A stretch of DNA of 64,000 nucleotides. It comes from a virus. Taxonomy: Duplodnaviria > Heunggongvirae > Uroviricota > Caudoviricetes. The DNA lies in IMG/VR virus record IMGVR_UViG_2541047913_000007, one strand, 5' to 3'. A model generated the notes under the pieces. That model made no database searches, was not told where the DNA came from, and saw nothing but the letters and a program-made list of their open reading frames with translations. Below are positions 40,612-47,366 of this stretch, in pieces. Position 1 is the first letter of the stretch. The number at the start of each line of letters is the position of its first letter. Made by a program: the position numbers and the translations under genes.

Positions 40612-42585
40612 TTATGCTGCTACGGCATTCACACCAACAGTAAGACTTTCAATCAGCACAGGGTAAGTTGCCGCATTTCCGGTAATATCCGTAATTGCCA
40701 GCGCGTTGGCCTCAAAGGCTGCATTCGTCCATCTGGTCAGCGTAAACGGTTTTCCTGCTGCATTATCAAGCACCGGCGTGACGTTCAGCGAGCCACCACC
40801 CGGGAAGCGGAAAGTCAGCGTGTGCCAGTCGTGATCGAACGGACCATAACTACCAAGCCGCTGTGATGTGGTGTTTGCATGATACATCACATTGATGTTT
40901 GTTTTATCAGTCTGCAGATAGAAGGCCGCAATATAACCCTCCTCTGATTCCGCTCCCGGCCATCCACTACCGCGCCAGTAAATACCCGCAGAATATTGAT
41001 TTGCAGAAGCATTGAGAGATACATCATCGGGGATTTTAAAGCGCAGCGTGATTTCACCGCCGTTATCGAACAGCTCCTTCCCCTTACCGGCATCAATTGC
41101 GTGCGATACTTTCCAGGTCTTTTTCTGTGCAAGACCATTTTCTGGTTTTTCAAGACGAAGGGCTTTTTTACCTGAACCACTGTCACTGACCAGCGTGTTT
41201 TTGACATCTGTCAGCGTCCAGCCCTGCGAAGCCAGATCGGCATTTTCCGCATTCGCATCATAAGCCAGCACTGACTGTATCTTTGTCGGGACAACGGATT
41301 CAGGCTGAGTATCGCCACTCTCCTGTGCTGGTTGCGATACGCCTCCGCCTGAAGAAACCGCGGCTTTTGTCACTTTCCCGGAAACAAAATCTGCCACTCT
41401 GCCCACATGCAGAAGAATGGCTGTTGCCAGACGGTCGGAAATAATTCCGCGACGCGCCCATGAACCAAAGTGGGTTTTACGATCGGATGTTGTCCAGCTC
41501 TTCGCATCCGTTCGTCCACCGGAACCATAATACCCGATAGCCGGAATATCCGGGTCTTCTGACGGTTCATTGGTCCCGACTTTCTGACCATTGTCATCCA
41601 TCATAAACGGCACAAAGAAGATATTTTTACCGGCTTTGGTTTTGTATGCGCCATAGACGGCATCGTATTGCGCTGAATACGTCTCCTTCCAGTAGTACGT
41701 CGTGTCACCACAAATCCAGGGCACCAGAGAAGGAGAAGCACCAGCGCACTGACCGGATACTCCCGCCAGGTCAGAACGGTATTTTTCCACCATGGCATCA
41801 AACATGGCGGGCTGACTGGCGTACGCTCCCTGTTTTAAATCAAACTCGCCCTGCATCCAGACAACACAAAGCAGTATGTTTTTGGGGTTTGCCTTCAGCG
41901 CGGCCTGAGTGCGTGTCAGCAGGTCTTTATACAACGGCTTATCAACGCCCCATCGTTCAGATTTATCCGACGCTCCTGAACTTTCACTGAACGTTCCGTC
42001 AGCACCGGCTGTAAACGCAGAGCCACCACGACAGCACGGCACTAACAAAATACCCGCATTTTCCGGCATAAAGGGCAACAGCTTTTTGGCAATATGCAAT
42101 CCCTGTCCGACACACCCATACTGCTCTGCGCTGGCTTTCGGATGAGAAAAACGGCTCAAATCCTGCACATCATGCAGGCAGTGGTCCGCCGGAATGATGT
42201 CGTTATATGCACAGGCCGCACCACCCGGTGTCACCGTACTGCGACGCGCCAGCTGTTTAATACGCGGGTCCGGACGGTCATATGTCTCCGGCAGCGGCAG
42301 GCCTTCACCATACGCCATGCCGTTTGACTGTCCGGCCAGCGCAATGACAAAGTAATATTCTGGTTCAACAACAACAGTCCGGGTACCATCTCCCCCCGGT
42401 GAAACTACCGGAGAGGTCATATCCCCTTCAGCGACTATAGCCTGGATAAATTCAGCACCATAACCCGCGTTTGAGATAATCGGACTACCATAGGGTTGCC
42501 AGCCTTCCTTCAGTTTTTGCGTCAGTTTTCCTGCGAGGTCTGACGGCGATGATGCCCTGACCACGTCATAGTGTTTAAATGCCAT
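40612..42585 (-). CDS. nanS-p: Prophage-encoded sialate O-acetylesterase-like protein (NanS-p type)
   Basis: Start at MAFKHYDVV with GGGAGGAA RBS; SGNH/SASA-like esterase region (ALAGQSNGMAYGEG); located between Q and lysis genes as in Stx phages. Confidence 0.65.
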   Translation of the reverse strand: MAFKHYDVVRASSPSDLAGKLTQKLKEGWQPYGSPIISNAGYGAEFIQAIVAEGDMTSPVVSPGGDGTRTVVVEPEYYFVIALAGQSNGMAYGEGLPLPETYDRPDPRIKQLARRSTVTPGGAACAYNDIIPADHCLHDVQDLSRFSHPKASAEQYGCVGQGLHIAKKLLPFMPENAGILLVPCCRGGSAFTAGADGTFSESSGASDKSERWGVDKPLYKDLLTRTQAALKANPKNILLCVVWMQGEFDLKQGAYASQPAMFDAMVEKYRSDLAGVSGQCAGASPSLVPWICGDTTYYWKETYSAQYDAVYGAYKTKAGKNIFFVPFMMDDNGQKVGTNEPSEDPDIPAIGYYGSGGRTDAKSWTTSDRKTHFGSWARRGIISDRLATAILLHVGRVADFVSGKVTKAAVSSGGGVSQPAQESGDTQPESVVPTKIQSVLAYDANAENADLASQGWTLTDVKNTLVSDSGSGKKALRLEKPENGLAQKKTWKVSHAIDAGKGKELFDNGGEITLRFKIPDDVSLNASANQYSAGIYWRGSGWPGAESEEGYIAAFYLQTDKTNINVMYHANTTSQRLGSYGPFDHDWHTLTFRFPGGGSLNVTPVLDNAAGKPFTLTRWTNAAFEANALAITDITGNAATYPVLIESLTVGVNAVAA

Positions 42586-42786
42586 TATTCCTCCCGGCAG
42601 GGATAGTGTATGCAATCAAGATAAGGTGCGGGCTGACGTCAGTCATGGACAAGGGTTCAGAAACAGGAGGATGACTACAGCCCGCAATACGAAAAAGACC
42701 ATACAGTTGCGCAGAGTGATTACTATCAGGTATTATTCGCCAGCTGAAAATTGATCACTTCACGTTTTGTTGTTTATTCCTTGCCA

Positions 42787-42817
42787 CCCGCGCTTCCCGG
42801 CGCGGGCTTTTTTTTAT
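42787..42817 (+). terminator. Intrinsic terminator (plus strand) upstream of nanS-p
   Basis: CCCGCGCTTCCCGGCGCGGG + TTTTTTTTAT. Confidence 0.6.
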
Positions 42818-42819
42818 CC

Positions 42820-43540
42820 AACAAGAAAGCCCCTCCGGAGAGGGGCTGGAGAGTAGCGCTATGTACCGTTCATGCATGGTGCAGGGTGCCTCCCGGTGAG
42901 TTCAGTATCAGCACCTGAACCCGCACCAGAAAGGATAAGGGGTGTGACCAAACACCTGTCGCTGATATGCCCCTCCGCACAGGGGGATTCACCATGCCAT
43001 ATTTTTTTAACAAACTTCCCGCTGGCCAGACAATAATCGCCAGCCTGAATTGTGAGTAACGTGGCATTTTACGGGAAAACTGTTTTCTGCAGTAAAAAGG
43101 CCCGCCGGAGCGAGCCTGGAAGGATAGCGGTCATGTGATGCCGGTTTCCCGGTAACTCAGCATCGGTATCTGAGTCAACGTTTTCTCTACTGGGTCATTT
43201 CCGATACGTTCCGCCTTCCGGCAGACTTTCATCACGTCAGAAAATATAGCACCCTGAGTAACAGGACAGTACTCAGAATTCAGGAAACTGTGACACATCC
43301 TGCACAGAAAAGCCCCTCCGGAGAGGGGCTGAAGTATAGCCTAATTTCTGTCTGTCGCATGGTGCCAGGTGCCTCCCGGTAAATTCAGCCTGGCTACTGA
43401 ATTTGCATGTTCGCTGGATCATACACTTTGCCAGATGCCCCGCCGCTGAGGGGGATTCACCACGCGATGCAATTTTTAACAAATTCTCCGGCAGCCAGAC
43501 AATCATCAAGCTGTGGAATTGTGAGGTATTTAAAAATTTC
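42820..43540. repeat. Three tandem copies (two complete, one partial) of a ~200-bp structured element in the Q-nanS intergenic space
   Basis: Shared blocks AAGCCCCTCCGGAGAGGGGCT, GCATGGTGC.GGGTGCCTCCCGGT, a second hairpin with covarying stem (GTTCAG/CTGAAC vs AAATTCAG/CTGAATTT vs ACTCAG/CTGAGT), GGGGGATTCACCA, ..GCCAGACAAT..TGAATTGTGAG. Confidence 0.7.
42828..42860 (-). terminator. Intrinsic terminator on late-transcript strand
   Basis: Minus-strand hairpin AGCCCCTCTCCGGAGGGGCT followed by TTCTTGTTGG. Confidence 0.5.
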
Positions 43541-44035
43541 GCAGCCTCTTGCCACCCGCTTTTCACAAAAATCGTATGTAGAAGGCCGCAGCGTAACTAT
43601 CACTGATGAATTCAGGACACCCAGAGGCTACGGCTCAGTTTGGATTGTGGCGGCCGGAATCGAACCAGCTCCCATCGGTGCGCTGCCGATTACAATACGC
43701 GCGGCGATCCGCTACATGACTAGTATTTTCACAGTCGCCTGTCTGCTAGCTCGCCATTGAGCTTCACCACAACGATAAGAGCACTGCGCACACCTTTCAC
43801 CAATTCCACGAGGTCTGCGGGTTCAATGCTCTTACCTGTTGTGCAAACAAAAAGCCCCGACATTTCTGCCGAGGCCTTTACCTAATCTAGCCAGTATGCC
43901 GATCCTAAATATTATCGACGACCGAGGTAAATCAGGATTTCTCTTTCGCTTCTCAGTGCGCTTTTGCTCCGAGCATACACAAAACATACTACTTTCATTT
44001 CTCGAAAGCAACGCATTTACAAAAAATATTTTGCA

Positions 44036-44650
44036 TCATCCAGCAATCACTAGAAGTTCTTTCTCCAATTCTCGCTTCATTGCATAAAACATTTCTGAAT
44101 CAAGGACCCTCTCGCACCACACGACCCGCCTCCGGCAATACTGAATATCAACTCCTGTTATCTGAGAAATCATCCTGGCGATATCTTGCGTGCTGTCGCG
44201 ATTGCAATATCGCCTAATAGCTACATCACGGACAGGGCTTTCACGATGAAAGGTCTCAACCATCACACGTTCAACGAAAGCAGCATCATCGGATTCTTTG
44301 GCGAGAGCAATGATATTACCTGCCGATGACTGAGGGATGACCAGTTCTCGGGCTTTCTGATGGAGTTCATCTCCACGTAGTCCGTCTTCTTCATACAGAC
44401 GCATGACAACAGACTCAATCTGCTTAGCTTTGTCATCGCTCCACTGACTGCGAATCATCAGTCGCCCAATAACGTTAATTGCACCACAAGGAGAATCATC
44501 ACCAGCGTTAACATTTCCCCATACCTGTAGCATGTAGTGAACCCATGCTTTCTGACGAGAGTTAATGATTTTCTTCGGATGCCTCCATATGCGGCGGAAA
44601 TGAGCATCATTAATAAAGTTAACCATGCCGAATACTGGGGTTAGCCGCAT
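44036..44650 (-). CDS. Q: Late-gene antiterminator Q-like protein
   Basis: Position directly after ninH and before the late region; Cys-rich C-terminus; start set at MRLTPVF (ATGA coupling with upstream ORF). Confidence 0.6.
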   Translation of the reverse strand: MRLTPVFGMVNFINDAHFRRIWRHPKKIINSRQKAWVHYMLQVWGNVNAGDDSPCGAINVIGRLMIRSQWSDDKAKQIESVVMRLYEEDGLRGDELHQKARELVIPQSSAGNIIALAKESDDAAFVERVMVETFHRESPVRDVAIRRYCNRDSTQDIARMISQITGVDIQYCRRRVVWCERVLDSEMFYAMKRELEKELLVIAG

Positions 44651-47079: not shown

Positions 47080-47242
47080 AGTGACGCCTCCGGTTGATGA
47101 GTTTTTCATTCACCACCGTCAGGTTCCTAATCATCGGGTGGCGAGACGTACAGGGTTAGGAACTACCGGATCAACCAACCGGCCAGCCTTTCGGCTGCCC
47201 CATACGCCCCACCATAATTCAGATGTGCGTGTGCATACGACA

Positions 47243-47266
47243 ATAAAAAACACGCTCGCGGCGTGT
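47243..47266 (-). terminator. tR2-like intrinsic terminator between replication/cargo region and nin region
   Basis: Minus-strand hairpin ACACGCCGCGAGCGTGT followed by TTTTTTATT. Confidence 0.55.
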
Positions 47267-47366
47267 GTCTGTCGCGGTTGAATATCCGGGGTTCCTAATC
47301 CCGACGCCAGATTTTGCTGGCGTGCGGTGAATATAATCCCGGATACCTATTTTTGTCAAACAACCG

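Follow-up and report, generated by a model that had tools for sequence, protein, structure and literature searches.

Three STnc100-family sRNA genes and an apparently undescribed tRNA-like RNA in a probable prophage late-operon leader

The minus strand carries all genes in the part of the window described here, the window being the whole 64,000-nucleotide stretch of phage DNA that was analysed. A Q-like late antiterminator gene (44662-44036) is followed by a 1.4-kb interval, an esterase gene (42585-40612) and the lysis genes. PhiR5_2 is 100% identical to window positions 42560-44100, and its annotation gives holin, lysozyme and Rz after the esterase. The 208-aa Q protein belongs with PHROG 753, 'anti-termination protein Q-like' (E=3.5e-68), and its homologues in Cronobacter phage ENT47670 and Salmonella phage UPF_BP1 are annotated as Q-like; a Pfam search with the protein matched no family. 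The esterase gene encodes a nanS-p-like sialate O-acetylesterase with Pfam matches to DUF1737, SASA and DUF6645, and at the DNA level it is about 73% identical to the yjhS/nanS-p gene that an Stx2a phage carries.

What fills the interval between Q and the esterase? The part next to Q (43890-44035, minus strand) is kept alongside it in ENT47670 and UPF_BP1, with homology running to about 43889-43944, and is presumed to contain both pR', from which late transcription starts, and the Q-binding/pause region. Within this Q-linked leader the sequence most like a promoter, TTGCTT-17-TATGTT at 44011-43983, was read by eye and does not appear on the list of a consensus promoter scan, so we place pR' there only as a candidate. 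A tR'-like intrinsic terminator follows (43845-43879, minus strand), with a 13-pair stem AAAGGCCUCGGCA/UGUCGGGGCUUU, a GAAA loop and then UUUUUGUUUG. It folds at -20.2 kcal/mol (z=-3.3) and occupies HK75's annotated tR' position, directly before the stretch common to HK75. Window positions 43853-43540 belong to the HK75/P22-like late-leader lineage at about 92% identity. They include a conserved lambda-type late-leader segment, ACUGAGCCGUAGCC...GAAAGCGGGUGGCA (43540-43644, minus strand), which we aligned with lambda, HK75 and Sf6; its phage BLAST matches have 90-94% identity, and in lambda, HK75, Sf6 and HK629 it is normally found before the holin gene. The esterase-proximal leader (42620-42810, assigned to neither strand) has two hairpins, a G+C-rich one at 42787-42806 with its U-run on the plus strand and a 15-pair one at 42627-42686, immediately upstream of the esterase ribosome-binding site.

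An earlier note on this DNA, made from the sequence alone, had described three tandem copies of an element of about 200 bp here, one hairpin of which showed compensatory stem substitutions. Both observations were borne out, and the Rfam comparison that the note proposed assigned the repeats to STnc100. The three RF02076 matches, all on the minus strand, are copy A (43302-43495; 138.7 bits, E=1.6e-31), copy B (43091-43266; 30.0 bits) and copy C (42817-43026; 129.9 bits); with a gathering score of 47 bits, copies A and C lie above the threshold and copy B below it. The matches of copies A and C extend over model positions 1-206. A terminator scan found one intrinsic terminator per copy, three in all (43330-43311, 43117-43098 and 42847-42828). 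Shared blocks in a repeat search are spaced 270 and 213 nt apart, while Tandem Repeats Finder reported no repeats in 42.4-44.3 kb because the copies are too diverged. RNAalifold predicts 44 pairs for the three copies, 12 of which are maintained by two-sided changes; three of the compensatory pairs fall in the 'UUCAG' hairpin (GGG/CUC versus AAA/UUU versus GAC/GUU).

Copy B is a divergent subtype that retains the family helices through compensatory changes despite its sub-threshold score. It has about 92% identity to the middle copy of an array in E. coli 042, where the same strong-weak-strong RF02076 pattern is seen and the whole array is about 79% identical to ours, and this subtype is better conserved between the two loci than its neighbours. 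Each copy is accompanied by an AT-rich promoter-like box, and these boxes fail the consensus promoter scan. Judged by homology, the three repeats are tandem genes of the known Hfq-binding sRNA family STnc100. The family and its genomic position are already known, and the sRNA part of the interval is ordinary. We carry expression, Hfq binding and 5' ends over from published relatives, as properties that the array would share.

A second structured RNA lies between the tR'-like terminator and the lambda-type segment. The earlier note had seen a canonical T arm and an acceptor-like 3' end in a segment for which it could find no complete cloverleaf. Both are present at 43669-43646 on the minus strand, the T arm as GCTGG-TTCGATT-CCGGC and the end as CGCCACA, and the segment proves to be the 3' two-thirds of a 127-128-nt element (43645-43772, minus strand) that we delimited by alignment to the Rfam tRNA model, by homologues and their covariation, and by a model of our own. 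The 5' side of the acceptor stem (TGTGGTG) and the D arm are found some 50 nt farther upstream, at 43771-43749, so the cloverleaf is incomplete only within the span first examined. The minus-strand element consists of an acceptor stem (43772-43765 / 43652-43645), a D arm (43762-43749), a 57-nt extra arm inserted after the D arm (43746-43692), a tRNA-Arg-like anticodon arm, AUCGG-CAGCGCA-CCGAU (43690-43674), and a T arm (43669-43653). The extra arm has a closing helix (43746-43743 / 43695-43692), an internal loop of its own that is conserved (AUAG / GCGCGUA), and a variable hairpin (43739-43703) capped by a palindromic loop, ACUAGU (43724-43719). No compact 17-nt anticodon arm follows right on position 26, the 57-nt arm intervening past the D stem.

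The Rfam tRNA model aligns end to end with 43771-43645, placing a 74-nt insertion where the anticodon arm should be, and scores 26.5 bits against RF00005, under the gathering score of 29. ARAGORN finds no tRNA in the interval at its defaults; the relaxed-score option, the intron option and the tmRNA search, each used alone, also gave no call there. Combining the intron and relaxed-score options produced a tRNA-Lys with a 77-nt intron, which we rejected as implausible. At an 80% threshold the 3' 72 nt are called as tRNA-Arg(GCG), with a broken D arm. The single-sequence fold of the region is uninformative (z=-0.97). Across homologues the elbow does not vary at G18 G19 and T54-T55-C56-A58. Positions 8 (8-9 being A-A), 33 and 37 hold the non-canonical A8, A33 and C37, and the encoded CCA end stands in a different register in different clades.

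Homologues of the element occur in more than 120 phage contigs of IMG/VR. In their alignment 90.9% of cells are paired, versus 29-46% in slid controls, and 18 pairs are changed on both sides, although the homologues form few clades and independent compensatory events are far fewer than the cell counts suggest. RNAalifold independently yields the same helices; the acceptor, T arm, closing helix and variable hairpin covary, and the many G-U pairs occur only on the element's strand. The palindromic loop covaries as well, appearing as ACUAGU, UCUAGA, UCGCGA, ACCGGU or GCUAGC, with UCUGGA as a wobble form. Invariance of the anticodon-like hairpin in the 43-sequence alignment says little, because the search pattern imposed it, and three loop variants were seen outside that alignment. 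A covariance model built here (R1), comprising the acceptor, D arm, extra arm with palindromic loop, AUCGG-NNNCGCA-CCGAU hairpin and T arm, gives the window element 155 bits and the family 138-172 bits, compared with 15-23 bits for real phage tRNAs. Seven members outside model building score 143-172 bits, and the unrelated N-leader interiors of lambda, HK629 and this window, considered as possible decayed copies of the element, score only 16-22 bits. The tRNA-like element is thus a conserved second RNA family of the interval and is structurally constrained. It appears undescribed: no Rfam family contains it, and we found no published description in a literature search that was thin on subscription journals.

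Where does this RNA occur? Its contexts are late-operon leaders, N-gene leaders, stand-alone units and one tRNA cluster. Among 120 sampled contigs, 27 have the stand-alone type of downstream flank (between terminators in three examples read through) and 24 have the N-leader location. In the window it takes the slot of tRNA-Asn and tRNA-Thr in Sf6, and in a Skate-type phage it stands at the head of a tRNA-Ile/tRNA-Arg cluster. The element heads both antiterminated operons: in the N leader it lies within the stem, in the late leader downstream of tR'. In E. coli it has 175 carriers, about 3% of complete genomes, and it is annotated in one of the 40 carrier genomes inspected. A one-genome-per-species scan, which says little on the full range, gave four matches, in Klebsiella, Enterobacter, Superficieibacter and a contamination-like Cellvibrionaceae MAG contig. 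No constant protein partner lies beside the element; HNH endonuclease genes are frequent but inconstant neighbours.

Could the interval be an empty or decayed Stx locus, one that formerly carried ileZ-argN-argO tRNAs and stxAB and of which the tRNA-like piece is the remnant of one tRNA? The earlier note offered this beside a second reading, a family of late-transcript RNA elements, having seen that the order Q, non-coding interval, esterase, S, R, Rz parallels that of Stx phages and that toxin genes are absent. The parallel is a true sequence relationship from window position 43014 onward: homology to an Stx2a phage begins inside copy C and continues through the esterase and lysis genes at about 73% identity, with a range of about 72-84% from 43014 downstream. 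That phage has a single STnc100 copy (159 bits), 75 nt past stx2B, and copy C occupies the position of this sole copy, between stx2B and the esterase. Moreover, the stx-less relative in E. coli 042 has tRNAs of the ileZ-argN-argO type directly upstream of the same three-copy array, which sits where stxAB would be. However, tblastn of the whole window with Stx2A and Stx2B gives nothing better than E=2.2, at a place outside the interval; the Stx-phage tRNAs (Met/Ile, Arg-UCG, Arg-UCU), as well as those of Sf6, show no similarity to 43.6-43.8 kb; and the interval contains no stx or tRNA remnants. Positions 43853-43540 derive from another lineage, that of the HK75 and P22-like leaders, and the tRNA-like element is maintained with compensatory changes across many phages. 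Decay would not give such conservation, so the element is not a decaying remnant. Comparison of the sequences largely refutes a decayed Stx locus, which we regard as highly improbable; the second reading of the earlier note is the one that stands. That the interval encodes small proteins is likewise highly improbable. The interval has ORFs of 55-117 aa on both strands, two of which (about 43428-43760, plus strand, and 43131-43298, minus strand) are annotated in PhiR5_2 as hypothetical proteins, and hypothetical proteins are annotated there in some E. coli records too. Yet these ORFs overlap the RNA elements, some of them antisense, and the substitutions track base-pairing and not codon structure. 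Every occurrence of the tRNA-like RNA comes with the ORF antisense to it, as expected if the RNA itself is conserved. A PHROG search, which covered the minus-strand ORFs 43273-43566 and 42870-43067, gave no match for one and a weak partial match (E=0.004) for the other.

The repeats might also act purely in cis, as a stack of terminators or attenuators that silences the esterase and lysis genes until Q acts, and make no trans-acting sRNAs. Four intrinsic terminators do stand in series from Q to the esterase, the array lies within the late transcription unit, and the promoter-like boxes are weak in the consensus scan. We nevertheless consider this quite unlikely: about 130 nt of covarying structure precede each terminator, far beyond what termination needs, cis and trans roles are compatible, and the relatives are detected as separate, abundant RNAs that are bound by Hfq and have many partners in RIL-seq (PMC8550237; PMC12711010). 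Is the second RNA simply a working tRNA-Arg that would supplement arginine decoding, as other phage tRNAs do, with the 57-nt insertion either cut out or borne as an additional arm? In E. coli Eco_70239 a copy with 93.6% identity was annotated by the NCBI pipeline as a tRNA-Arg of 127 nt, and ARAGORN's reduced-threshold call points the same way. The loops CAGCGCA and CAUCGCA would each present an Arg anticodon (GCG and UCG, respectively), the elbow has the canonical nucleotides, and the element occurs in tRNA slots, once as the first member of a tRNA cluster. Still, such a tRNA is unlikely. Both detectors, ARAGORN at its defaults and the Rfam tRNA model, leave it below threshold; A33 replaces the near-universal U33, C37 a purine and A8 the usual U8; and the CCA end is in an inconsistent register. 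The insertion falls between the D stem and position 26, where we know of no bacterial splicing system that acts. The extra arm, with its conserved internal loop and covarying palindromic loop, indicates a function beyond decoding. It is nearly as likely as not that the tRNA-like element is derived from tRNA-Arg, no longer decodes, and represents a functional, undescribed family of structured RNAs in temperate enterobacterial phages.

The interval as a whole is probably the 5' leader of a prophage late operon, a mosaic of non-coding RNA modules and not a decayed toxin locus. Read 5' to 3' on the minus strand, this leader would comprise the Q-linked promoter region, the tR'-type terminator, the tRNA-shaped RNA, the lambda-type segment and the three sRNA genes. 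In the lysogen, the three sRNAs would be made as separate transcripts of about 170-200 nt. Copies A, B and C would be Hfq-bound and would use the unstructured linker just before the terminator to pair with mRNAs of the host or of prophages; since this linker differs among the copies, each would have its own set of targets. After induction, Q-modified RNA polymerase would pass tR' and the three sRNA terminators, and the esterase and lysis genes would be expressed. The tRNA-shaped RNA would most likely be excised from the leader by tRNA-processing enzymes, with RNase P acting at the 5' end. We model this on the ordinary tRNAs at the same position in Sf6, L and Stx phages, which are thought to be so processed. 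Once excised, it would persist as a stable non-decoding RNA. The covarying 6-nt palindrome in its extra-arm loop suggests loop-loop homodimers, so the stable RNA may be dimeric. The element could be a module for processing or insulation, or it could act on host tRNA-directed enzymes as a mimic or decoy; its processing, dimerisation and role are what we infer.

What does the locus add? Stx-less relatives of Stx phages carry three diverged STnc100-family genes in and around the slot that holds stxAB and one copy in Stx2 phages. The array refines existing knowledge, and helps annotation and thinking on the diversification of sRNA repertoires in prophages. The interesting part of the interval is the tRNA-like RNA, a strongly structured, mobile and mostly unannotated module that recurs at the heads of the lambdoid N and late operons, which are among the most thoroughly studied regulatory regions known. 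Should it be processed, dimerise or mimic tRNA-Arg, it would be an unrecognised RNA player in phage gene expression or in phage-host conflict over tRNA.

Among known sRNAs, EcOnc27 of E. coli O157 Sakai (sRNA103 in EDL933) binds Hfq, is encoded just downstream of stx2B and overlaps STnc100 (PMC12711010). Copies A and C resemble these RNAs in fitting the full model, the consensus structure and the 3' terminator, and the array lies upstream of a nanS-p-type esterase, as STnc100 does in Stx2 phages. Those phages have one copy, whereas three stand in tandem here with no stx in front, and the middle copy of the window belongs to a divergent subtype (30 bits), which other genomes keep as well. In EPEC E2348/69, PasD1 and PasD2 are Hfq-dependent sRNAs of 172-173 nt (PMC8550237). 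They are structurally related to STnc100, with pasD2 between Q and the sialate esterase gene and pasD1 before the holin gene (PMC8550237; bioRxiv 10.64898/2026.05.13.724894); the association of STnc100 with the prophage late region and its esterase and lysis neighbours is also reported there (bioRxiv 10.64898/2026.05.13.724894). PasD2 (NC_011601 741157-741328) shares with the window copies the slot between Q and sialate esterase, the overall fold and the 5' boundary: its mapped 5' end aligns with GCAUGGUGAAUCC, a point just past the AT-rich box in copies A and C. Its match to RF02076 is weak (41 bits), and the PasD 3' half, with the seed CCUUGUGAG and the terminator, is unrelated in sequence to copies A, B and C. 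Copy B was considered as a PasD orthologue and rejected, only the 5' domain being common; by alignment, no window copy is one.

The tRNA-like element is closest in position to the tRNAs of late-operon leaders, with which we compared it using PMC8022706. The tRNAs of Sf6 (Asn/Thr), phage L (Asn/Leu) and Stx phages (ileZ-argN-argO) likewise come right after tR' and before lysis or moron genes, and share the acceptor, D and T architecture and the canonical elbow. The window element differs in the 57-nt arm between its D stem and anticodon-like arm, in A8, A33 and C37, and in scoring below the detection thresholds. A tRNA elbow, formed by a T loop and a GG-containing D loop, is also joined to a non-tRNA module in the tRNA-like domain of tmRNA and in the Y-RNA-like YrlA, and in this the element is similar. 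Nothing rose above noise for the tmRNA or YrlA families in an Rfam search of the element, the weak partial tmRNA matches being located on its T arm. It is much shorter than tmRNA and has no tag reading frame. It differs from YrlA, whose layout is permuted, in that its acceptor stem brings the 5' and 3' ends together, and no rsr/Ro gene lies near it. The last comparison is with the stem-loop that separates nutL from the start codon of N in the lambda N leader, the RNase III processing site. The interiors of this stem in lambda and in the window's own N leader (56790-56928) are unrelated to the tRNA-like element, and the window element, located in the late leader, has a stem of just 8 pairs there. 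In the inspected N-leader examples, by contrast, the element sits inside the stem, with the closing helix CUUUGGGGUGUG(G)UG / CACCACACCACCAAAG that is common to lambda.

What occupies the 1.4-kb interval between Q and the esterase gene? The prophage has its late-region genes on the minus strand. In Pfam, the 208-aa ORF at 44662-44036 (minus strand) has no match; among the PHROGs it matches PHROG 753, 'anti-termination protein Q-like' (E=3.5e-68). The ORF at 42585-40612 (minus strand) matches DUF1737, SASA (sialate acetylesterase) and DUF6645 in Pfam, with its ATG at 42585 and the ribosome-binding site GGGAGG. Escherichia phage PhiR5_2 and prophages of five complete E. coli genomes carry 42560-44100 with 100% identity, and twelve further E. 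coli genomes carry it at 99.7-99.9%. Because the PhiR5_2 annotation places holin S, lysozyme R and Rz 3' of the esterase, these matches confirm the order claimed in an earlier note: Q, 1.4-kb interval, esterase, S, R, Rz. A 15-pair hairpin (42627-42686) lies immediately 5' of the esterase ribosome-binding site, and a strong terminator-like hairpin at 42787-42806 (plus strand) has its U-run on the plus strand and so faces the late operon.

The esterase-proximal half of the interval carries an array of STnc100 (RF02076), a family first defined in Salmonella. The three tandem repeats of about 200 bp reported in the earlier note correspond to three minus-strand matches in Rfam 15: copy A at 43495-43302 (138.7 bits), copy B at 43266-43091 (30.0 bits versus a gathering score of 47) and copy C at 43026-42817 (129.9 bits). 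Tandem Repeats Finder reported no repeat because the copies are too diverged. Each is closed by a G+C-rich hairpin and a U-run (43330-43311 in A, 43117-43098 in B, 42847-42828 in C). RNAalifold places 44 pairs across the copies, 12 of them maintained by two-sided changes, and the compensatory substitutions noticed earlier in one repeat hairpin are real: GGGUUCAG/CUGAACUC in C, AAAUUCAG/CUGAAUUU in A and GACUCAG/CUGAGUU in B. Read by eye, copies A and C have an AT-rich box, UUAAAAA, about 18 nt 3' of TTGTCT, and the corresponding place in copy B reads TGCTATATT; a consensus promoter scan did not list these boxes. The linker joining structured domain to terminator is unlike among the three copies, which suggests that they may have distinct target sets.

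STnc100 overlaps an Hfq-binding sRNA of E. coli O157 that lies directly 3' of stx2B and is named EcOnc27 in Sakai and sRNA103 in EDL933 (PMC12711010). PasD1 and PasD2 of EPEC E2348/69 are Hfq-dependent sRNAs of 172-173 nt, structurally related to STnc100, with pasD2 between Q and the sialate esterase and pasD1 immediately 5' of the holin gene (PMC8550237; bioRxiv 10.64898/2026.05.13.724894). PasD2 matches the STnc100 model weakly (41 bits), and its mapped 5' end lines up with GCAUGGUGAAUCC, just 3' of the UUAAAAA box. Alignment shows the 5' domain alone in common between PasD2 and copies A, B and C, so we reject the idea that any copy is a PasD orthologue; the PasD seed is located where the copies have their variable linker.

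Is the interval an empty or decayed stx/tRNA locus, as the earlier note proposed? The observation behind that proposal is confirmed and its interpretation is supported in part. The parallel to the late region of Stx phages holds, with homology to an Stx2a phage beginning at 43014, within copy C, and, at 72-84% identity, covering the esterase and the lysis genes as well. The order in that phage is Q, methylase, three tRNAs (Met/Ile, Arg-UCG, Arg-UCU), stx2A, stx2B, STnc100 and esterase, with a single STnc100 copy (159 bits) 75 nt 3' of stx2B. Decay is rejected, since no stx remnant was detected in the whole window (tblastn, best E=2.2) and the tRNAs of Stx phages and Sf6 show no similarity to 43.6-43.8 kb. 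A stx-less relative in E. coli 042 (comparison locus L138, NC_017626 1417231-1420597) has methylase, tRNA-Ile, two tRNA-Arg genes, three STnc100 copies and esterase; its array occupies the place of stxAB and the one STnc100 copy of Stx phages. The 042 copies score 136, 30 and 165 bits, the same strong-weak-strong pattern as in the window. That the middle copies are more alike (about 92% identical) than the whole arrays (about 79%) argues for copy B as a conserved subtype rather than one in decay. The sRNA family and its place are both known; its arrangement in this array is new.

The upstream half of the interval derives from lineages other than the Stx phages. Q and about 100-150 nt 3' of it are common to Cronobacter phage ENT47670 and Salmonella phage UPF_BP1. 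A strong hairpin with a U-run at 43879-43845 (minus strand; -20.2 kcal/mol, z=-3.3) coincides with the annotated tR' of HK75, and 43853-43540 is about 92% identical to the tR'-to-holin-gene stretch of HK75 and P22-like phages.

Within this half lies a tRNA-like element (43772-43645, minus strand). The T arm and 3' strand seen earlier are present at 43669-43646, and the accompanying statement that no full cloverleaf could be folded applies to the span considered there alone, as the 5' acceptor partner and D arm were found further upstream: TGTGGTG (43771-43765) forms 7/7 pairs with CGCCACA, and the D arm GCTC-AATGGC-GAGC follows 3'. ARAGORN found no tRNA at default settings and, at an 80% threshold, a 72-nt 'tRNA-Arg(GCG)' that has A33 and whose D arm is broken. 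Over its whole length, the Rfam tRNA model aligns to 43771-43645 with a 74-nt insertion replacing the anticodon arm, scoring 26.5 bits versus a gathering score of 29 (E=0.001 in a small search space). The proposed structure comprises an acceptor stem of 8-9 pairs, the D arm and an extra arm, after which come AUCGG-CAGCGCA-CCGAU, the 4-nt variable region and a T arm of canonical form. The extra arm has a closing helix that differs by clade (GCAG/CUGC, GGG/CCC, GUGU/ACAC or GAG/CUC), a conserved internal loop (AUAG / GCGCGUA) and a variable hairpin, quite different in sequence by clade, with a 19-20-nt loop.

An exact-pattern scan, in which the AUCGG...CCGAU hairpin was fixed in advance, found the element in at least 120 IMG/VR contigs. 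In all, three variants of that hairpin's loop were seen (CAGCGCA, CAUCGCA, UAGCGCA). Across 54 distinct sequences, the roughly 127 nt are 75-95% identical and the flanks unrelated from clade to clade. Among 43 distinct sequences, standard pairs fill 90.9% of cells versus 29-46% with partners slid by 1-3 columns, and 18 pairs show two-sided changes, although the sequences fall in a few clades, so that the cell counts overstate the number of independent compensatory events. The covariation score is 0.293 versus 0.13 in shuffles (0/500 reach 0.293) and at most 0.087 with slid partners. RNAalifold, supplied with no structure, returned the same helices (34 pairs, 12 compensatory). Many U-G/G-U pairs on the late-operon strand would be mismatches on the opposite strand, so the RNA is read in the late-operon direction. 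Family members, seven of them outside the training set, reach 138-172 bits with R1, our covariance model built from the alignment, and real phage tRNAs 15-23 bits. No Rfam family matched the element, and a literature search, with most subscription journals outside its coverage, found no paper describing it. It occurs in 175/5426 complete E. coli genomes and is unannotated in 39 of the 40 inspected; in the other, the NCBI pipeline calls a 127-nt tRNA-Arg. Two 'hypothetical proteins' of PhiR5_2 (4341-4673 and 4803-4970) and a 'polyubiquitin-A' of phage vB_EcoP-683R2, the latter over the tRNA-like element, are likely mis-annotations of RNA elements. A 9.7-kb Cellvibrionaceae MAG contig (JAUVQU010000080, our L130) also carries the element; about 175 nt, flanks included, are identical to the HK75-type prophage copy in E. 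coli Eco_70239, and the contig is probably a wrongly binned enterobacterial phage.

Could the element decode arginine? Its elbow nucleotides are canonical (G18 G19, T54-T55-C56-A58), as that reading would have it, but A8, A33 and C37 are present, as is a 57-nt arm in a place at which bacterial splicing is not known, so a decoding tRNA-Arg seems quite unlikely. We favor a tRNA-derived, non-decoding RNA, which tRNA-processing enzymes would free from operon leaders. A covarying 6-nt palindrome (ACUAGU, UCUAGA, UCGCGA, ACCGGU, GCUAGC; wobble form UCUGGA) lies in the loop of the variable hairpin; as a loopless palindrome cannot pair within one molecule, loop-loop dimerization would be the simplest reading. 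This RNA merits experiments.

Other RNA elements lie elsewhere in the window. In the nin/antirepressor region, isrK (68.9 bits) adjoins C4 antisense RNA (67.5 bits) at 47134-47323 (minus strand), a pair that constitutes a P1/P7-type antirepressor control module. An ALIL pseudoknot, which is the IS3-family frameshift element, scores 120 bits at 52933-53049 (plus strand) and probably marks an IS inside the prophage immunity/replication region. Two sRNA-Xcc1 matches (2395-2483 and 2932-3017, plus strand; 69 and 73 bits) lie about 540 nt apart.

Among the 120 contigs listed, the tRNA-like element occupies a late leader, as in the window, in 60, an N leader in 24 and a Klebsiella-type context near a portal gene in 9; 27 are of a stand-alone type, assigned by downstream flank. 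In the three stand-alone examples read through, the element lies between a terminator upstream and one of its own. A Skate-type Salmonella siphovirus has the element at the head of a cluster with tRNA-Ile and tRNA-Arg(UCU). HNH homing-endonuclease genes often adjoin its slot (HK629 gp62, BIS08P22 and comparison loci L014 and L040) and may be related to its mobility between leaders.

How does this arrangement compare with known phages? In Sf6, tRNA-Asn and tRNA-Thr fill exactly the slot that the element has in the window. The N-leader copies inspected lie between nutL and the N start codon, enclosed by a stem, CUUUGGGGUGUGGUG / CACCACACCACCAAAG, that the lambda N leader shares around an unrelated interior; in lambda, we take this stem to be the RNase III site. 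The window's own N leader (56790-56928, plus strand), between a nutL boxB (56763-56777) and an N-like gene (56943-57326), has the same closing stem, GGGGUGUGGUG.../...CACCACACCACC, near-identical in lambda, around a different interior of about 100 nt (16 bits with R1). The stem looks like a frame with swapped interiors. The outer acceptor-stem halves persist in the late leaders of lambda (44.9 kb) and HK629 (GUUGUG...CACAAC and UUGUGGUGAA...UCGCCACAA), and unrelated interiors of 72 nt and about 100 nt replace the tRNA-like body.
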